Positions 769 to 7,202 of a stretch of DNA of 64,000 nucleotides are shown here, piece after piece. Below the pieces are notes generated by a model. That model saw nothing but the letters and a program-made list of their open reading frames with translations. It searched no databases and had not been told where the DNA came from. The stretch covers positions 141,189 to 205,188 of IMG/VR virus record IMGVR_UViG_3300032321_001270; one strand, written 5' to 3'. The stretch is from a virus. Its lineage: Duplodnaviria > Caudoviricetes. The first letter of the stretch is position 1, and each line of letters opens with the position of its first letter. The translations under genes were made by a program, and so were the position numbers.

Positions 769-1041
769 TTATGTGCCGTTTTGCACGACGCTCACGTTGT
801 GTTGCGTCATTTTTTCGTTGAGCCATTTATCCTCGGCCGCCAACGCCGCCGCCCGACATTTAAACCCGGTGAACAGCGGACCGCCGACTGGCGACAGGTC
901 TGCCATCCACTCTCCGGGCTTTTCTTCATTTGGTTCGACGTGGCTGGCCCTTTTGATATCAAGACTGCCCAGCGTAGACAAATCGATGTCTTCGCCGTAA
1001 AGGCACTGGGCGGTCCCATTTGGTCTGATGTAAATGTTCAT
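769..1041 (-). CDS. Conserved hypothetical protein (planctomycete-like, AAA/DUF3150 cluster associated)
   Basis: LYGEDIDLSTLG..I.RASHVEP...W.ADLSPVGGP motif recalled from Planctomycetota hypotheticals; coupled to upstream gene. Confidence 0.75.
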   Translation of the reverse strand: MNIYIRPNGTAQCLYGEDIDLSTLGSLDIKRASHVEPNEEKPGEWMADLSPVGGPLFTGFKCRAAALAAEDKWLNEKMTQHNVSVVQNGT

Positions 1042-2000
1042 ACGCCACCCATAGACATGAGACGTCTGGCTGGGACAAGCGCATCCATATTGACCGGCTG
1101 CGTTGTGGGCATCAGGTGGTTTAGCGCGCGGGCTCTTTGGCTCCGCGGTACATTATACGCCTGAAACTGATCGTATCGTTCAATGGTTGCCGCAGGGAAT
1201 ATTGCGTCCTCTGTGACCGAGATACGGTCGTAGCCGTTAGTGGATGTGGGCGGCCTGAAAATGATGCGGCCGCCAATCACCATGCAATGACCGCCAAATA
1301 CCAGCAGCGCGTTGATCGACTCGACATTTGCAATGACAGCAAAGTCAACGACCTTGAGCCGATTTTCGTCAAGTAGCGATGTGTCTGTGTTACCTTTGTA
1401 TAAAGACAGTTGATGCAGTTTGCTGGAAAGCACCTGCGCGTTGCCGGCGACAGTGACGTAACCCTGTAGCGTAGATTTGCACACGTGTGCGTCGCCTGCA
1501 ATATACGCAGCGCCCTCCATCGACGTCATCATGACAACCGCTTCGCCGGCAATCCTCGAATCGCCGCGCATGGTGCAGCTTTTAACCGTCGGGTTTCCGA
1601 GCACAATTGCACGATCCTGCAACACAGTGGAGCCCAGTAGCGTTCCGCCAATTACTCGCGCCATATGCAGCACGCGCGAATCATCAGCCGCCCGCGCTTG
1701 ACCACCAACATACGCCGTGTTTGTTACTTTTACGCGATCAGTGAGATGGGCATAACCACAAACCTGCGCTTTGTGCGTAATCTCTGCTCTACCTTCTACT
1801 ACTGCGTGGTGATATACCTGCGCAAATTTATTTACAAACGCTGTATCAGCTACTTTGGCTGTATCTGCAACCCAGCCGCCGCCGTTGGCGTGCCGGTGCG
1901 CAAAAACTCGACCAAGACCGTCTTTAAAATCGTGCTTGGACGCCCGTTTCTTTCGAATCTTCTTCGCGGTCGCCGTAGACGATGTTTCCTCCATTCTCAC
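1038..2000 (-). CDS. Hexapeptide-repeat (left-handed beta-helix) protein
   Basis: HRHANGGGWVADTAKVADTAFV followed by periodic A.V.G.A.[VIL] hexapeptides. Confidence 0.75.
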   Translation of the reverse strand: MRMEETSSTATAKKIRKKRASKHDFKDGLGRVFAHRHANGGGWVADTAKVADTAFVNKFAQVYHHAVVEGRAEITHKAQVCGYAHLTDRVKVTNTAYVGGQARAADDSRVLHMARVIGGTLLGSTVLQDRAIVLGNPTVKSCTMRGDSRIAGEAVVMMTSMEGAAYIAGDAHVCKSTLQGYVTVAGNAQVLSSKLHQLSLYKGNTDTSLLDENRLKVVDFAVIANVESINALLVFGGHCMVIGGRIIFRPPTSTNGYDRISVTEDAIFPAATIERYDQFQAYNVPRSQRARALNHLMPTTQPVNMDALVPARRLMSMGGV

Positions 2001-2941
2001 TCCATTCGCATGACGCGTCGGCGTGGCGCGTCGGTGATCAGGCTGTCGAGCGAAACCTTGAGATCGCTCATCTGAGTACGAAGGGTCTGCTGCATTTCTT
2101 CGTTCTTGCGCAGTTCCTTCGGGTCGACGCCGGCGACCAGCGCGTTGGCTTGATCAATCAACGCCTCAAGCTGCGCGTTCGACCGCACATTCATGTGACG
2201 GAAATTCTCGTAGAACTCTTTGAAGTTCTCGATTGTCGACGCGGTGAATACCTTTTTCTTGCCGTCCGGTTCTTCTGTGAGCCGCTCGATAAGATGCGTG
2301 ACAAGGCCCTGTAGCGTTTCTGCAAACGCGTCTTCGGCCATAGCCACGGCATTCTCAAATCGTCGTTGCACGCGGTTCTGCTCAGCCTGATAGACCCCCG
2401 GGTTGAGCGCCACAAGATAACGTGGCGGCTCGATCGGCGGGTACTCCCACGAGATATCAAAAACGCCTTCCAGCGTCGCCGGGTAATCGTTGGGATTAAA
2501 CAGGCTTCCAAGCTTTTCGCGGGCGGCATTTTTGATGGCGTCGTACTCAAGCTGCAGGTTTGCCACAGCGGCTGCGAGCTGATCTTTGTATCCGCTCATC
2601 GTTTCTTCAAAGCGCGCGACGTCTTCCTGCTTAATCAACCGCGTACCCTCTTGTGGATACGGCAGCGTAATACCGCGCCAAAAAGTCTGCGCCTGACTCT
2701 TGATCGCGGTGGCCGCGCGGTAGGCCGGATGCTTGGTGTCAATCAGTCTCTTCGACGCGGTGACCAGATCAGTCGCGGCGTCGAACGTGTCGGCAGCCTG
2801 CTTGGTCTGCGCATCTGAAAGCTTGCGCTGAGTGCCAAGCCACGAGAAGGAAAGCCGGACCGCGCCCATCGTCTGACGCAGATCGTTCGCTGTCTGCTCT
2901 ATTGAATTTGTTTCTGGTGTTGTAATTTCTGTTGTAGACAT
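1997..2941 (-). CDS. DUF3150-like protein
   Basis: AVRLSF.WLG..RKL...Q..AADTF.A....ASK.L.D..HP.Y pattern; helical C-terminus; cluster context. Confidence 0.65.
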   Translation of the reverse strand: MSTTEITTPETNSIEQTANDLRQTMGAVRLSFSWLGTQRKLSDAQTKQAADTFDAATDLVTASKRLIDTKHPAYRAATAIKSQAQTFWRGITLPYPQEGTRLIKQEDVARFEETMSGYKDQLAAAVANLQLEYDAIKNAAREKLGSLFNPNDYPATLEGVFDISWEYPPIEPPRYLVALNPGVYQAEQNRVQRRFENAVAMAEDAFAETLQGLVTHLIERLTEEPDGKKKVFTASTIENFKEFYENFRHMNVRSNAQLEALIDQANALVAGVDPKELRKNEEMQQTLRTQMSDLKVSLDSLITDAPRRRVMRME

Positions 2942-3520
2942 TCAGTCTTCCTCGTCTTCGTTAACCATCTCGTCAATATTGAACATTGTCACAAGATCTC
3001 GTGGCAGCGTACTTTCGACCGCGGCGACTGTGTCGGGTATTTCGTACTCCTGTATCGCGCCGTTGTCGTAGATGCCGCAGAAATTTAATCCCGGCTCAAA
3101 AAAGTACGCTTTGACATTAAAGCCGCGAGACTGTCGCATGTACTCAAAGAATTCAACCGGCGGGGACCACGCGGAATCAAACCGAAGATTTACACGAGTG
3201 GCTGTCGGTCGTAGCGCCTGCCGACGCGGAGCATCTTTTTCGCGGCCCACATCCCATTTTGTACCCCAGTGACCCACTTGCCATTCGTACCAGTTTCTAG
3301 CGCCGTAGAGCTGAATGTTTTGCTGCTCTTGCGCCTCTAACGTTATTTGCTCAGGCGATCCAGCCGGCCCAGCACAACCAGCTACGGTATTTTTTAGTTC
3401 TGGCGGGCACGGCATAAATGTGCCCATAAGTTGTCCGCTATTCCATGCGCGCACAATGTTATTTAATTCTTTCAGATCTTCGTGTTTAAACGTCACATAG
3501 TTGGTGCACCAGTTTGGCAT
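2942..3520 (-). CDS. DUF1281/YubB ferredoxin-like fold protein
   Basis: MPNWCTN start with GGAG RBS; NWYEW....WGTKWD and FDSAWSPP motifs. Confidence 0.75.
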   Translation of the reverse strand: MPNWCTNYVTFKHEDLKELNNIVRAWNSGQLMGTFMPCPPELKNTVAGCAGPAGSPEQITLEAQEQQNIQLYGARNWYEWQVGHWGTKWDVGREKDAPRRQALRPTATRVNLRFDSAWSPPVEFFEYMRQSRGFNVKAYFFEPGLNFCGIYDNGAIQEYEIPDTVAAVESTLPRDLVTMFNIDEMVNEDEED

Positions 3521-3544
3521 AGCGTCTCCGATCAGCAATCCGCA

Positions 3545-3570
3545 GCTGCGGGGCAGTGACGCCCCGCAGC
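3545..3570 (-). terminator. 10-bp GC hairpin downstream of the AAA ATPase
   Basis: GCTGCGGGGC-N6-GCCCCGCAGC; no clear U-tract. Confidence 0.4.
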
Positions 3571-3588
3571 CGCAGTATTGCCAATACT

Positions 3589-5073
3589 TTAGCCCTTGGC
3601 GGGCGCGGCCACGCGGCGGCGACCGGCGACCGGCACAGCGGCCTTACCGACACGCGTATAGATACCGCGCGTATCCGCAGACAGGCAGCGGCCCTCGGCC
3701 CACTGGCGCAAGCGCTCGATCTGCTCAGCAGACGTAACCGAAACCGGAACCACGTTCTGCGCCGCTTCGACGAGCGGGATGTCGAGCAGCGCCGCCAGAC
3801 GGCAGCAGCTCTTGATCTCGGCGCCAGTCCAGTTGGTGTCGTCGGGGCGCTCCTGTGAAGCGTCAACGCCAAACTGATTTAGATAGATATCCCAGATCGC
3901 CGACCGCTGGTCAGGGCCGGGCAGATCCACGAAGAAAATGCCGTCGAAACGCTCGGCGCGGGCGAACGGCGCGGGCAGCTGGCTCGCGTCATTGCAGGTG
4001 CCGATAAAGAACACGTCCGACGTGTGATCGTTCAACCACGTTAACAGCGTACCGAATAGACGCGCCGACACACCCGAGTCAGTCTGGCCGGAGCTACCGA
4101 CGCCCGCCAGACCCTTCTCGATCTCGTCGACGAACAGCACGCACGGCGCCATCGCGTCGACCTGTCGAAGCGCACGCCGCATGTTACCCTCGGACTCGCC
4201 CACGAACTTGCCCATGAGCGAACCGAAATCGAGCATGACGGTCGGACGACCTACTTCGTTACCAAGTGCCTTGGCAAACTGCGACTTGCCGCAGCCCGGC
4301 GGGGACAGCAGCAGTACACCCTTGGGGCGCTTGTCCACGTTCGTTTCGCCCTGACGCCGCATGGCGCGCAGGCAGAACGACTTGAGATTTTCAAGGCCGC
4401 CAAGGTTCTCGAAATTCGCGTCGCCGCGATACAGGGTCATGGTGCCGCTCTTTTCGAGCGTCTGCGCCTTGATGCCCCAGATCGTGTCCGGCGACAGTTT
4501 GTTATTACGCACCAGCGACAGCGCGTACGCGTTCTCGGCCTCCTGCCGTGTCAGACCGCGGGAAGCGTCTACGACAGCGTCAACTTCCTGCGCGGTCGGC
4601 TTGGTAAACGCGCAGCCTTCCGGGAACAGATCGTTGCATACCGTCGTGAGCTGCGAGAGATCCGGCAACTCGTGATGAACCACCGTGAACAGCTTTTCAA
4701 CCTCGGGCTGGAGCTGCAGAACCGGCGCCACAATGATGATGTGCTTGCCGTCGCCCTTGCCCTGCACAACCCGATTTGCCAGCGCCTGCAGAACCTCGGG
4801 GTTACCAAGGAACCGGTGGAAGTTCTTCAGCACCAGAAGCATCGGCTGCTTCGGCTGCGGCTGGTCAAGAAACCGGAGAGCCTGCAGCGGGCCGGGAGCC
4901 GGAGCAATACCCGAATATAACTGGCGGTCGATGTCCCAGACGTCGAAGCCCCATTCCTTCTCTTCGGTTACCCTGCGAATCGACGCAATCGCATCGTCGC
5001 ACTCCTGCGATTCAACCCAGATGCCGGAAAAGCCGGCGCAGACCAGCTCTTTGATTTCTTTTTCGAGTGACAT
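3589..5073 (-). CDS. AAA+ ATPase, Ycf46/SpoVK/Vps4-like (degenerate N-terminal AAA plus active C-terminal AAA)
   Basis: Walker A SPPGCGKS, Walker B VLFVDEIEKG, pore loop GKFVGESE, SRH-like ARAERFD. Confidence 0.9.
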   Translation of the reverse strand: MSLEKEIKELVCAGFSGIWVESQECDDAIASIRRVTEEKEWGFDVWDIDRQLYSGIAPAPGPLQALRFLDQPQPKQPMLLVLKNFHRFLGNPEVLQALANRVVQGKGDGKHIIIVAPVLQLQPEVEKLFTVVHHELPDLSQLTTVCNDLFPEGCAFTKPTAQEVDAVVDASRGLTRQEAENAYALSLVRNNKLSPDTIWGIKAQTLEKSGTMTLYRGDANFENLGGLENLKSFCLRAMRRQGETNVDKRPKGVLLLSPPGCGKSQFAKALGNEVGRPTVMLDFGSLMGKFVGESEGNMRRALRQVDAMAPCVLFVDEIEKGLAGVGSSGQTDSGVSARLFGTLLTWLNDHTSDVFFIGTCNDASQLPAPFARAERFDGIFFVDLPGPDQRSAIWDIYLNQFGVDASQERPDDTNWTGAEIKSCCRLAALLDIPLVEAAQNVVPVSVTSAEQIERLRQWAEGRCLSADTRGIYTRVGKAAVPVAGRRRVAAPAKG

Positions 5074-5086
5074 GTGTTTCCTTTAG

Positions 5087-5278
5087 TTAGTTGCTCTCGG
5101 CGATCTGCTCGTCGTTGCTGGCGTTGTAGAACTCGCCAGTCAGCTGCTCATCAACCTTGGCGCCCAGCGCCTGCTCCAACGCGCGGGTCGCATCCTGACA
5201 TGAACTACCGGTGTAGCCGCTCGTTTCGATCTTGGTGCCGCCCTTGGGGTCGACGATGATCTGGATAGTCTTGGTCAT
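5087..5278 (-). CDS. DUF2997 family protein
   Basis: I.IIVDPKG..KIETSGYTGSSC..AT.ALE.ALG motif; adjacent to AAA ATPase. Confidence 0.8.
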   Translation of the reverse strand: MTKTIQIIVDPKGGTKIETSGYTGSSCQDATRALEQALGAKVDEQLTGEFYNASNDEQIAESN

Positions 5279-5280
5279 GT

Positions 5281-5646
5281 TCAGAAACCTCCCGTCAGAT
5301 TGAGTTTGATGGAACCGTCCTGCAGCGTCTCTTCGTACACCGAATAGCCGCCCTTCTGAGCCTCGTAGATCGCCTTTTCAACCGCATACGCCTGCAGGAA
5401 CTTGTCCAGCTCCGCCTGCTTGCCCCACGCGCCGTTGTAGTTGTCGTAGTTTGCGGCGCCGGTCTCGGTATTAAACACGGCCGGATACTGCCAGCCGGGA
5501 AGCTTTACAGCCATGCCGTCGGCGCTCTGACCGGCGAACAGCACATGGTGCCCGGTCTTGGGCGCTTCCAGCCCTAGTCGACGGCACGCCGCTTCAACGG
5601 CCGCCGCATCCTTCACTTCCGTCTTGATCTGAACGATATGAGACAT
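5281..5646 (-). CDS. DUF1257 (Ycf35-like) protein
   Basis: MSHIVQIKTEVKD...AC.RLG N-terminus; DNY.G.WG; LQAYAVEKA..EA.K.GY.V.E. Confidence 0.8.
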   Translation of the reverse strand: MSHIVQIKTEVKDAAAVEAACRRLGLEAPKTGHHVLFAGQSADGMAVKLPGWQYPAVFNTETGAANYDNYNGAWGKQAELDKFLQAYAVEKAIYEAQKGGYSVYEETLQDGSIKLNLTGGF

Positions 5647-5648
5647 TG

Positions 5649-5969
5649 TTAGCCCCGTGTATCCTTTTTTGAAAGGTGATGTTGAAGTGCGCACATAATT
5701 GTGCTTTCAAATTGTTCGGGCGAGATGTAATCAGTGCCCGCAAAGTATTCCAATAAAGCAACCGCCGTTTTGCGGTCATATACAAACTTAAATTGCCTCG
5801 GTCCGCGCGGCGTGTCTAAATGGTATTCCGTGATGTCGTGCAACGTCACGACTTCAGGAATGGCCAACACGTCGCTGTATTCGCGGCGCAGCCTGTCTAA
5901 CGAGTCGAGCGCTGTTAAGATGCGCTCGCGATCTTCGTCTTGCAGTTTTTCTTCGTTGTATGGCGTCAT
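5649..5969 (-). CDS. Hypothetical protein
   Basis: Compact ORF in operon-like chain, 4-nt overlap with upstream gene. Confidence 0.6.
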   Translation of the reverse strand: MTPYNEEKLQDEDRERILTALDSLDRLRREYSDVLAIPEVVTLHDITEYHLDTPRGPRQFKFVYDRKTAVALLEYFAGTDYISPEQFESTIMCALQHHLSKKDTRG

Positions 5970-6307
5970 CGGTACGCCACAACCTCGGCGCGTGTTTCAA
6001 CCCAGACGTGCGCGCCACAAGAGAGCGGCGCGTCTGGCGAGTAGACAACCCGCGATTCTCCGCGGACGTCTACGTTTTTTGCTGCGTATGTTTTATTACG
6101 CCACTTTATGGTGAGCGGCGGTACGCGTATGTTTTGCTTTTTATTGTCTCGAATAATGTGCTGGTTAACGTGAATACGTTTAATTGTTCCAGCCGGCATC
6201 GTCATTTCATCGGCATCGCCCGGAAACCGGAGCGGAATGCGTGGTTCGAGCAGGCAGACATTGTCTGTCGCCATGGTCTGATCCTTTCGTCTGCAGAGGG
6301 CAGACAA
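5966..6307 (-). CDS. Conserved phage hypothetical protein (IHVNQHII family); start uncertain
   Basis: KRIHVNQHIIR.N and VVYSPD.PLSCGA.VW.ET motifs recalled from many phage genomes. Confidence 0.7.
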   Translation of the reverse strand: MSALCRRKDQTMATDNVCLLEPRIPLRFPGDADEMTMPAGTIKRIHVNQHIIRDNKKQNIRVPPLTIKWRNKTYAAKNVDVRGESRVVYSPDAPLSCGAHVWVETRAEVVAYR

Positions 6308-6377: not shown

Positions 6378-7202
6378 TCAGCGGCTCATCATTGCGCCGA
6401 GCTGCTTGTGCGCGGTGAGAATTTCACCGGCCGTGTCGTAGCAACCATCGCAGGCTTCCAGAAACGCTGTCGCCGCTTTGAGCTGCCCCATCGGCAACAT
6501 CGTGGTCTTCGACGGCGCCGACTCGACGGCCCGATGCTTCGGAGTAACGCGAGGAGCCTCGGCCGCGCCGACGCGCTTGCCCTTTGCCGCAACGAAACTC
6601 TTTTCTTCCGATCCGGCCTTGACGCCGCGTTTGGTCGGCTTGACGCCGGCTTTCTTGAGCAACTGGCTCACCTGAGCCGGGCTCACAACAACGCGCTTCT
6701 TGGCGAGCGCCGCCACGATATCGACACCGCGCAGCGAGTCACCAGATTCCTGACGACGCTCGATTTCCTCGCGGATGTGATCGGCGCCACTCTTCTTATC
6801 AGCCATGGCATTCACTTTCTTTTTGGTGCCGGACGTTTCTTCGGCCGACACAGTGGGATCATCATCTTTGTCGCTCTCCACAACGGAGTCGACCTCATCA
6901 TCGCTTTCGTCAACTACCTCGTCGCCTTCTTCAGGTTCGTACTCAGTTTCGTCTTCGTCTTCTGTCGCGTCGCTTTCTTCAAGCTCAGCAGCTTCGACGT
7001 AGGCAGCTTCGTTATCATCTTCAAGGACCGCATCTTCTTCAAGCTCTGCATCGACGTCCAAGTCAATGTCGTCGTCTTCTTCGTTGGTCCGCATCCGTGG
7101 GGCCTTTTCTTCCTTCTTCTCTTTTGCTGGCTTGCTGGTAGATCCGGGCAGTGGTTTGCCCCACAGATTTGCGGGGCTGATCAGGTCATCAGCTTTCGCC
7201 AT
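6378..7202 (-). CDS. Bipartite protein: long acidic tract plus basic/helical C-terminus
   Basis: D/E-rich residues about 40-115; SGADHIREEI..RG.DIV.AL....SPAQVSQLLKK HTH-like segment; AGGAG RBS. Confidence 0.75.
   Translation of the reverse strand: MAKADDLISPANLWGKPLPGSTSKPAKEKKEEKAPRMRTNEEDDDIDLDVDAELEEDAVLEDDNEAAYVEAAELEESDATEDEDETEYEPEEGDEVVDESDDEVDSVVESDKDDDPTVSAEETSGTKKKVNAMADKKSGADHIREEIERRQESGDSLRGVDIVAALAKKRVVVSPAQVSQLLKKAGVKPTKRGVKAGSEEKSFVAAKGKRVGAAEAPRVTPKHRAVESAPSKTTMLPMGQLKAATAFLEACDGCYDTAGEILTAHKQLGAMMSR

Follow-up and report, generated by a model that had tools for sequence, protein, structure and literature searches.

Ycf35 and Ycf46 have figured for decades among the conserved open reading frames (ORFs) of plastids and cyanobacteria, and their mechanism is missing. 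In cyanobacteria, a DUF2997 gene clusters with ycf35 and fed7 (PMC4284462), and ycf46 belongs to a separate stress operon, slr0373-slr0374(ycf46)-slr0376 (PMC7496141), whose S. elongatus counterpart starts with a copG-like gene (PMC13683863). Here we analyse a phage gene set that codes for an AAA+ ATPase, DUF1257/Ycf35-like and DUF2997 proteins, a DUF3150-family protein and a conserved 90-residue protein. It is found at positions 769-5646 of a 64,000-nucleotide stretch, called the window hereafter, which covers positions 141,189 to 205,188 of the IMG/VR virus record IMGVR_UViG_3300032321_001270; coordinates refer to the window unless another locus is named. An earlier note on this DNA had treated Ycf35, DUF2997 and Ycf46 as the products of one established operon. 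The DUF2997-ycf35 cluster and the ycf46 stress operon are indeed described, but a single operon of the three is stated in none of these reports (PMC4284462, PMC7496141, PMC13683863).

The phage set has two partner Pfam families in common with the Ycf46-Ycf35-DUF2997 proteins of cyanobacteria and plastids, and its DUF1257-like protein keeps the Met-Ser-His N-terminus described for essentially all Ycf35 proteins (PMC13060386). It differs from the cyanobacterial genes in that the phage genes form one operon with those of DUF3150 and the 90-residue protein, whereas the DUF2997-ycf35-fed7 cluster and the ycf46 operon are separate loci. The phage ATPase is also akin to Cdc48/p97/VAT in its ATPase domain, motifs and pore-loop, its small dedicated partners (here predicted) and its conserved C-terminal tail. 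Unlike those proteins, it has a single ring and a private N-terminal region of ~225 residues; its partners DUF1257, DUF2997, DUF3150 and the 90-residue protein are unrelated to known cofactors, and there is no ubiquitin-like system in the operon. The searchable open literature yielded no description of the module and hardly any mention of DUF3150, although this is a very large family.

The virus record is 205,188 bp long, with an estimated completeness of 100%, and the phage genome encodes a terminase large subunit (E 1e-54) together with tail-fibre and tail-sheath matches, which bears out the phage-borne location proposed earlier. The seven tightly coupled genes that had been listed between 769 and 5646 are all present, and all are on the (-) strand. 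Consecutive genes overlap by 4 nt at 1997-2000 and 1038-1041 and abut without spacer at 2941/2942; 2 nt separate the DUF1257-like gene from its neighbour on each side, and 13 nt precede the AAA gene. The loosest junction of the 769-6307 run is the 68-nt spacer 3' of the ATPase gene. Promoter and terminator scans detected nothing exceeding the shuffled expectation.

An ATPase-centred gene set in phages and Planctomycetota

Searches with the ATPase returned 69 viral loci, with identities from 94% down to 29%, and 80 loci of species-representative genomes, nearly all of them metagenome-assembled genomes (MAGs) of Planctomycetota (46-67% identity), with a 6.9-Mb Tepidisphaeraceae chromosome among the Planctomycetota loci. 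ORFs were called, and iterative hidden Markov models built from the window's proteins were run on the viral and genome loci alike. Co-occurrence was counted in the 61 loci that have a full-length ATPase gene and at least 6 kb on both sides, and lineages were clustered by AAA identity (19 at 70%, 10 deep ones at 50%). The ATPase is accompanied by the DUF1257-like and the DUF2997-like genes in 57 of the 61 loci each, corresponding for both to 18 of the 19 AAA lineages, by DUF3150 in 51 loci (14/19 lineages) and by the 90-residue gene in 48 (11/19 lineages). In distant phages whose ATPases are only 29-34% identical (L054, L058, L066 and L068), gene order is shuffled and the set is kept together. 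In the Planctomycetota loci, DUF1257, DUF2997 and AAA follow each other in this order, and a variable gap of up to ~7 kb then leads to DUF3150 and finally the 90-residue gene. The earlier note had proposed that DUF3150 and the 90-residue gene extend the triad, a claim exposed to failure if they did not co-occur with it elsewhere; these counts, which include other phages and Planctomycetota, support the extension. Because DUF3150 and the 90-residue gene are missing from some lineages, the firm core is the ATPase with the DUF1257-like/DUF2997-like pair, DUF3150 being a very frequent fourth member and the 90-residue gene a clade-restricted fifth.

The Planctomycetota copies are located in integrated mobile elements or islands. 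Their neighbours code for SNF2 and DEAD helicases, a WYL regulator, a PD-(D/E)XK nuclease, a D12 methylase, an MmeI-type enzyme, an IS91 transposase and a serine recombinase. A phage host among the Planctomycetota would agree with these findings. The island setting would suit a part in the establishment of the element as well as one in conflict with other elements. Multiple copies suggest a repeated mobile element: one MAG harbours at least four modules (L123, L125, L136 and L159), and one contig has two within ~15 kb (L122 and L127). On one Planctomycetota chromosome, a ThiF-family (E1-like) gene (L162:15331-16038) is found ~4 kb downstream of the module, followed by genes for an SNF2 helicase and an MmeI-type enzyme. 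The cultured planctomycete Anatilimnocola floriformis has a reduced copy (L163, JAMLFW010000001.1:3675408-3695605) comprising a 94-residue ORF, DUF2997 and a 519-residue AAA protein, ~1.5 kb downstream of a gene for a large serine recombinase; the annotation shows no DUF3150 family in its vicinity.

Because the set recurs in unrelated phages and in Planctomycetota mobile islands, we lean towards the view that it represents one functional module of mobile DNA, in which an AAA+ unfoldase works with a DUF1257/DUF2997 pair and a DUF3150/90-residue pair, and a common C-terminal tail acts as an address label. A hexamer-type classical AAA+ protein unfoldase would thus occupy the centre of the module, with the two partner sets around it, and we infer that the components form a physical complex.

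The ATPase (3589-5073, (-), 494 residues; PF00004, E 2.4e-27) has the hallmarks of the classical AAA+ clade, namely Walker A and B motifs, a sensor-1 Asn, the arginines of the second region of homology and pore-loop 1. Its AAA domain (residues 220-431) has the D2 ring of Cdc48/p97 as closest solved relatives (E 5e-43). In an alignment of 24 sequences, G260, G262 and K263 (Walker A, 260-263), N361 (sensor-1), R372 and R375 are invariant, and the Walker B residues D316 and E317 nearly so. The pore-loop reads KFVG in the translation. No solved relative matched the N-terminal region (residues ~1-225). An Atlas feature search with residues 1-225 returned cyanobacterial fragment clusters (0.97-0.98) and, lower down, a cluster named ycf46 (0.85), which we regard as a lead only. 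The overall length and layout of the protein resemble what we take to be those of Ycf46.

In several close relatives, a group I intron (RF00028, 68.6 bits, E 5e-17) splits the AAA gene at the Walker B codons, after ...FVD. It was found at L036:7939-8721 and also in L037, L039, L040, L050 and L052, and it carries a 186-residue HNH-like ORF. Group I introns are typically located in genes that are expressed and under selection. The window's own AAA gene is intron-free.

Partner proteins and C-terminal tails

The DUF1257/Ycf35-like protein (5281-5646, (-), 121 residues from its ATG) was assigned from its PF06868 score, its Met-Ser-His start and its structural model. Its own PF06868 score, 22.1 bits, is just under the cut-off of 22.2, with a match confined to the C-terminal 44 residues; certain close relatives carry precomputed PF06868 annotations. 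The AlphaFold2 model (mean predicted local distance difference test score, pLDDT, 82.8) matches DUF1257-named clusters with TM-scores of 0.87/0.86, and M1, S2, H3, G63, D68 and Y87 are invariant in 26 sequences. The best VIA matches of the model are within noise (TA0095, Z 6.0; KA1-type domains, Z 5.7). The idea of a tautomerase-like N-terminal Pro/Ser was dropped, as Foldseek returned no match to the model. The DUF2997 protein (5087-5278, (-), 63 residues) is a clear family member (PF11211, E 1.3e-14, 54.2 bits versus a cut-off of 24.1, profile positions 1-47 of 47), with G13, C27 and G39 invariant in 16 sequences. No cyanobacterial relative was present among the best 120 matches of either the DUF2997 or the DUF1257 search.

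Several near-complete viral genomes looked as if they had only the ATPase and DUF3150, and the Pfam DUF2997 model matched nothing there. When the ORFs were clustered de novo, two small conserved genes emerged that precisely these apparently reduced loci have in common. The product of the first, 89-158 residues long, always starts with Met-Pro-Cys; that of the second, of 68-93 residues, has an invariant His, mostly followed by a His-rich tail. In hhalign comparisons, the first matches the DUF1257 profile (93% probability, E 2.6e-7, 92 columns) and the second the DUF2997 profile (76% probability, E 2.2e-5, 46 columns), versus 2% and 0.2% for the cross-comparison controls. In these alignments, His26 of the second cryptic protein falls on Cys27 of DUF2997, and Cys3 of the first takes the place of His3 of DUF1257. 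The His3/Cys27 combination is thus replaced by Cys3/His26, so that one Cys and one His are retained with their partners exchanged. The cryptic DUF1257-like and DUF2997-like genes and this residue swap are new findings.

Because the Cys and the His are retained on opposite partners in the cryptic variant, the alignments suggest that DUF1257 and DUF2997 share one Cys/His site, possibly for metal binding, for redox sensing or as a catalytic dyad; we consider this a lead and not a proof. The two proteins would then probably form a heterodimer with this single site between them. Some of the cryptic DUF2997-like proteins (L061:10219-10428, L057:10401-10613 and L060:4840-5055) end in runs of alternating His residues. 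Such His-rich tails would fit with metal binding.

The second partner set consists of DUF3150 and the 90-residue protein. The 314-residue protein encoded at 1997-2941 (-) was assigned to the DUF3150 family through its relatives and a model match. Its own PF11348 score is low (13.2 bits versus a cut-off of 24.9, E 0.056), and nine of 20 viral-contig relatives aligned over their full length match DUF3150, with a best E of 1.3e-20. The AlphaFold2 model (pLDDT 84.7, predicted TM-score 0.75) matches an Atlas cluster in which 18% of the members carry PF11348, with TM-scores of 0.78/0.75 over 290 residues. It consists of an alpha/beta N-terminal part, a long helical hairpin and a C-terminal helical bundle, followed by the tail PRRRVMRME. 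An Arg-containing C-terminal tail is conserved in the alignment of the 20 relatives, whose profile matches 12,003 representative clusters at E <=0.001 in a collection of 1.84 billion proteins. VIA-align found only generic helical bundles for the model (Z <=9.5). We also considered an ESCRT-III/Vps4-like arrangement of DUF3150 with the ATPase; Foldseek gave no match at E <=0.001, and the idea was dropped as unsupported. Membrane remodelling, one of the functions envisaged in the earlier note, found no support: no hydrophobic segment is present in any core protein, and the DUF3150 model has no ESCRT-III-like or otherwise informative match.

The 90-residue protein (769-1041, (-)) contains a RASHVEP motif and belongs to no family in Pfam, PHROG or NCBIfam. 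Planctomycetota and several phage lineages encode relatives of it beside DUF3150. Among 38 genome loci from Planctomycetota, 19 have a DUF3150 stop codon that overlaps the start codon of the 90-residue gene by exactly 4 nt, and 33 have a distance of -4 to +23 nt between the two genes. This arrangement suggests that DUF3150 and the RASHVEP protein would be produced together through translational coupling.

The ATPase and DUF3150 have a further feature in common, an Arg-rich C-terminal tail. In the clade of the window, the tails are ...GRRRVAAPAKG for the ATPase, ...PRRRVMRME for DUF3150 and ...ARRLMSMGGV for a beta-helix protein encoded between DUF3150 and the 90-residue protein (see below). 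In another clade, the motif is at the very C-terminus of both the ATPase (...GRKLDI or ...LRKIDM) and DUF3150 (...KRAIDF). Five of 233 crudely predicted genes of the phage have the pattern RR[VLI][MVIAS] within their final 13 residues, versus 0.8 expected, and three of these five are in the module. More generally, an RR-x-hydrophobic tail was found for 33 of 133 non-core genes inside modules, as compared with 19 of 854 flanking genes on the same strand. The tails of the ATPase and of DUF3150 from the same locus are also alike: in 21 lineage representatives, the mean similarity score was 12.05 versus 9.83 for shuffled pairs, with 37 of 20,000 permutations reaching the observed value. The two tails thus co-vary by lineage, which is a new finding.

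By analogy with ssrA and HbYX tails, the Arg-rich tail may be an address label by which proteins reach either the motor or a common docking site, and we infer tail-directed recruitment on this basis. As in ssrA/ClpX and HbYX/PAN-Rpt, a short C-terminal peptide is common to the motor and its putative clients, and in one clade its very C-terminal placement is ssrA/HbYX-like (ATPase ...RKLDI, DUF3150 ...RAIDF). In contrast with those systems, the motif of the module is Arg-rich and unrelated in sequence, and the neighbourhood encodes neither a protease nor a 20S-like partner. A fourth bearer of the motif is a 174-residue protein without Pfam family that ends in ...KRRVVAMAE and is encoded outside the module on the (-) strand (G000:C1:134616-135140, equivalent to L164:1117-1641), ~6 kb before the start of the window. 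Judging from its tail, it may be a further client.

Alternative roles of the module

The neighbourhoods of the Planctomycetota copies, with their helicases, nuclease, methylase, MmeI-type enzyme, transposase and recombinase, might be taken to indicate a system of conflict between mobile elements, the ATPase being the sensor or effector of an anti-phage or anti-plasmid defence (abortive infection, competitor exclusion) or of a counter-defence. The presence of at least four copies in one MAG and weak matches of the ATPase to IetA (E 2.6e-15) and to NCBIfam IteA (1.3e-13) point in the same direction, and the module is like IetAS in its IetA-resembling AAA domain and its location on mobile DNA. 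We nevertheless consider this role unlikely. The IetA matches span only the generic AAA domain, the NCBIfam score is 50.9 bits against a cut-off of 510, the partner set is different, and there is no IetS-like serine protease. Searches against the defence systems of PADLOC-DB gave the generic IetA AAA matches and a weak ZorA coiled-coil match (E 0.0017), with no second component of either system. In addition, no nuclease, protease, TIR, pore domain or other effector is recognisable in the core, the module is embedded in long co-directional operons of large lytic-type phages from many lineages, and an ordinary integrated element would account equally well for the island context. The role in host takeover or counter-defence suggested in the earlier note is speculation. 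A function in replication or genome maintenance, in which the unfoldase would act on a DNA-bound factor (a clamp, a helicase loader or a partition protein, for example), either remodelling or unloading it, appears less probable still. The set adjoins the replicative helicase gene in Rhizobium phage L338C, the ATPase gene of Corndog is near ParB-like and Ku-like genes, and the neighbours of the Tepidisphaeraceae copy are helicases and a faint DNA_pol3_delta2 match. However, none of the five core proteins has a DNA-binding or replication domain, and the nearest identified gene in the window is that of the terminase. The tail motif does not match what we take to be the clamp-binding consensus, which also weighs against this role.

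The gene content might also reflect no single machine, with DUF1257-DUF2997 and DUF3150-90-residue protein being independent pairs that share an operon with an AAA+ chaperone. Either pair can be incomplete or missing (DUF3150 in the L046 clade and in L338C, the 90-residue gene in most distant phages), up to 7 kb of variable genes separate AAA from DUF3150, and the report of the cyanobacterial DUF2997-ycf35 cluster with fed7 mentions no ATPase (PMC4284462). The association nevertheless outlasts the shuffling of gene order at 29-35% AAA identity, the ATPase keeps a DUF1257/DUF2997-like pair in all but one of the 19 lineages and DUF3150 in 14, and the ATPase and DUF3150 have a common, co-varying tail, so that we hold this explanation to be improbable. 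Lastly, the module could be a virion-assembly chaperone of this phage group, for instance one that folds the beta-helix protein as a component of a fibre or depolymerase. This protein does bear the tail and is encoded within the operon, and the module forms the end of a long (-) array to which tail genes also belong. Yet Planctomycetota islands and distant phages without a beta-helix gene commonly carry the core set, and no structural-protein family matches any core member, which makes such a function very unlikely.

With respect to the reading that we favour, a single module built around an unfoldase, a number of observations weigh against it. DUF3150 was not found in the deep phage lineage of L046, L048 and L051, one genome of which is 92% complete, nor in Rhizobium phage vB_RleS_L338C (L338C), which has the ATPase, DUF1257, DUF2997 and a 90-residue relative, mycobacteriophage Corndog or the streptococcal satellite Javan368. 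A tblastn search with a Pfam-type member detected no DUF3150 relative in cultured phages or plasmids, a profile search detected none in Corndog, L338C, Javan368 and two viral genomes, and hhalign detected none among neighbouring ORFs. The 90-residue gene is present in only two of the ten deep AAA lineages. The periphery of the machine is therefore variable, and its parts may not all touch. The Cys/His swap represents one evolutionary event only, and the tail enrichment is mainly due to one cargo family, the beta-helix proteins, plus one small family, and so to few independent events. Finally, the models of DUF3150 and DUF1257 resemble no fold that has been characterised, and so give no pointer to a substrate.

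A more specific version of the single-module reading, to which we attribute a low probability, is that the Cys/His site between the two subunits of the heterodimer gates a tail-reading unfoldase, whose clients would be DUF3150, the motor itself and captured cargo such as the beta-helix protein. If this is true, the gated unfoldase would give phages and integrated elements a portable, tag-based system for remodelling proteins, and it could explain the orphan Ycf35, DUF2997 and Ycf46 proteins of plastids and cyanobacteria. The invariant Met-Ser-His, the swapped Cys/His pair and the shared tail are handles that open the Ycf question to simple biochemistry. Among multi-gene sets of unknown role, the module is one of the more widespread in large freshwater phages.

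Inserted and flanking genes

In the clade of the window, two cargo genes were spliced into the operon, one of which gained the tail. That gene (1038-2000, (-)) codes for a 320-residue putative left-handed beta-helix protein, YdcK/Svx-like (NCBIfam YdcK/Svx, ~1e-12). It matches phrog_5070 (E 7e-20) and, faintly, the Pfam Hexapep family (E 0.2); the matches to the YdcK, Svx, LpxD and LpxA models are partial (1e-12 to 2e-3) and far under the whole-protein cut-offs. The gene, ~1 kb long, is found between the DUF3150 and 90-residue genes with 4-nt overlaps on both sides, and it is restricted to phages with at least 68% AAA identity (21 of 61 loci, one of 19 AAA lineages). It is an insertion into the translationally coupled DUF3150/90-residue pair. 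Its product carries the C-terminal tail motif of the module and so appears to have been recruited as a client instead of being a neutral passenger.

The other inserted gene (2942-3520, (-)) codes for a DUF1281_C-like protein of 192 residues from its ATG, the ORF reaching a TTG at 3538. The protein has an acidic C-terminus and has not acquired the tail. Its assignment is based on a sub-threshold PF18406 match (19.8 bits versus a cut-off of 22.8, E 7.5e-4) and on phrog_20518 (E 3e-15). A gene of this type occupies this position in ten close relative loci only, and in three of the 61 loci used for counting (one of 19 AAA lineages). A partial copy was found 5.6 kb further downstream in L020. The possibility that it is a DUF1257 paralogue was discarded (hhalign probability 0.3%). 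The suggestion that the DUF1281-like and beta-helix genes are swappable cargo thus holds insofar as both are insertions confined to one lineage, but the beta-helix protein appears not to be a neutral passenger.

A second family of cargo proteins, of 85-94 residues and ending in ...RRRLLPFE, is encoded between the AAA and DUF3150 genes in some relatives (L019:8971-9228, L028:8566-8850, L033:8557-8838 and L040:9774-10034). It corresponds to no Pfam family, and with the beta-helix family it makes up nearly all the tail-bearing cargo.

Two further genes precede the DUF1257-like gene in the same run. The first in transcription order codes for a protein of 113 residues (5966-6307, (-)) and the second for one of 106 residues (5649-5969, (-)). 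They were found in 32 and 46 viral loci, respectively, and in no distant or Planctomycetota locus, with the sole exception of L081, a 94%-identical copy of the phage binned as a MAG. Both genes are probably outside the module core.

Relatives of this phage clade have two genes flanking the module, one on either side of the run, that are not core elsewhere. The downstream one (297-635, (-)), present in 29 of 69 viral loci, codes for a Cys-rich protein with a signal-peptide-like start, and the upstream one (6378-7202, (-)), present in 45 viral loci, for an acidic 274-residue protein with a weak winged-helix hint.

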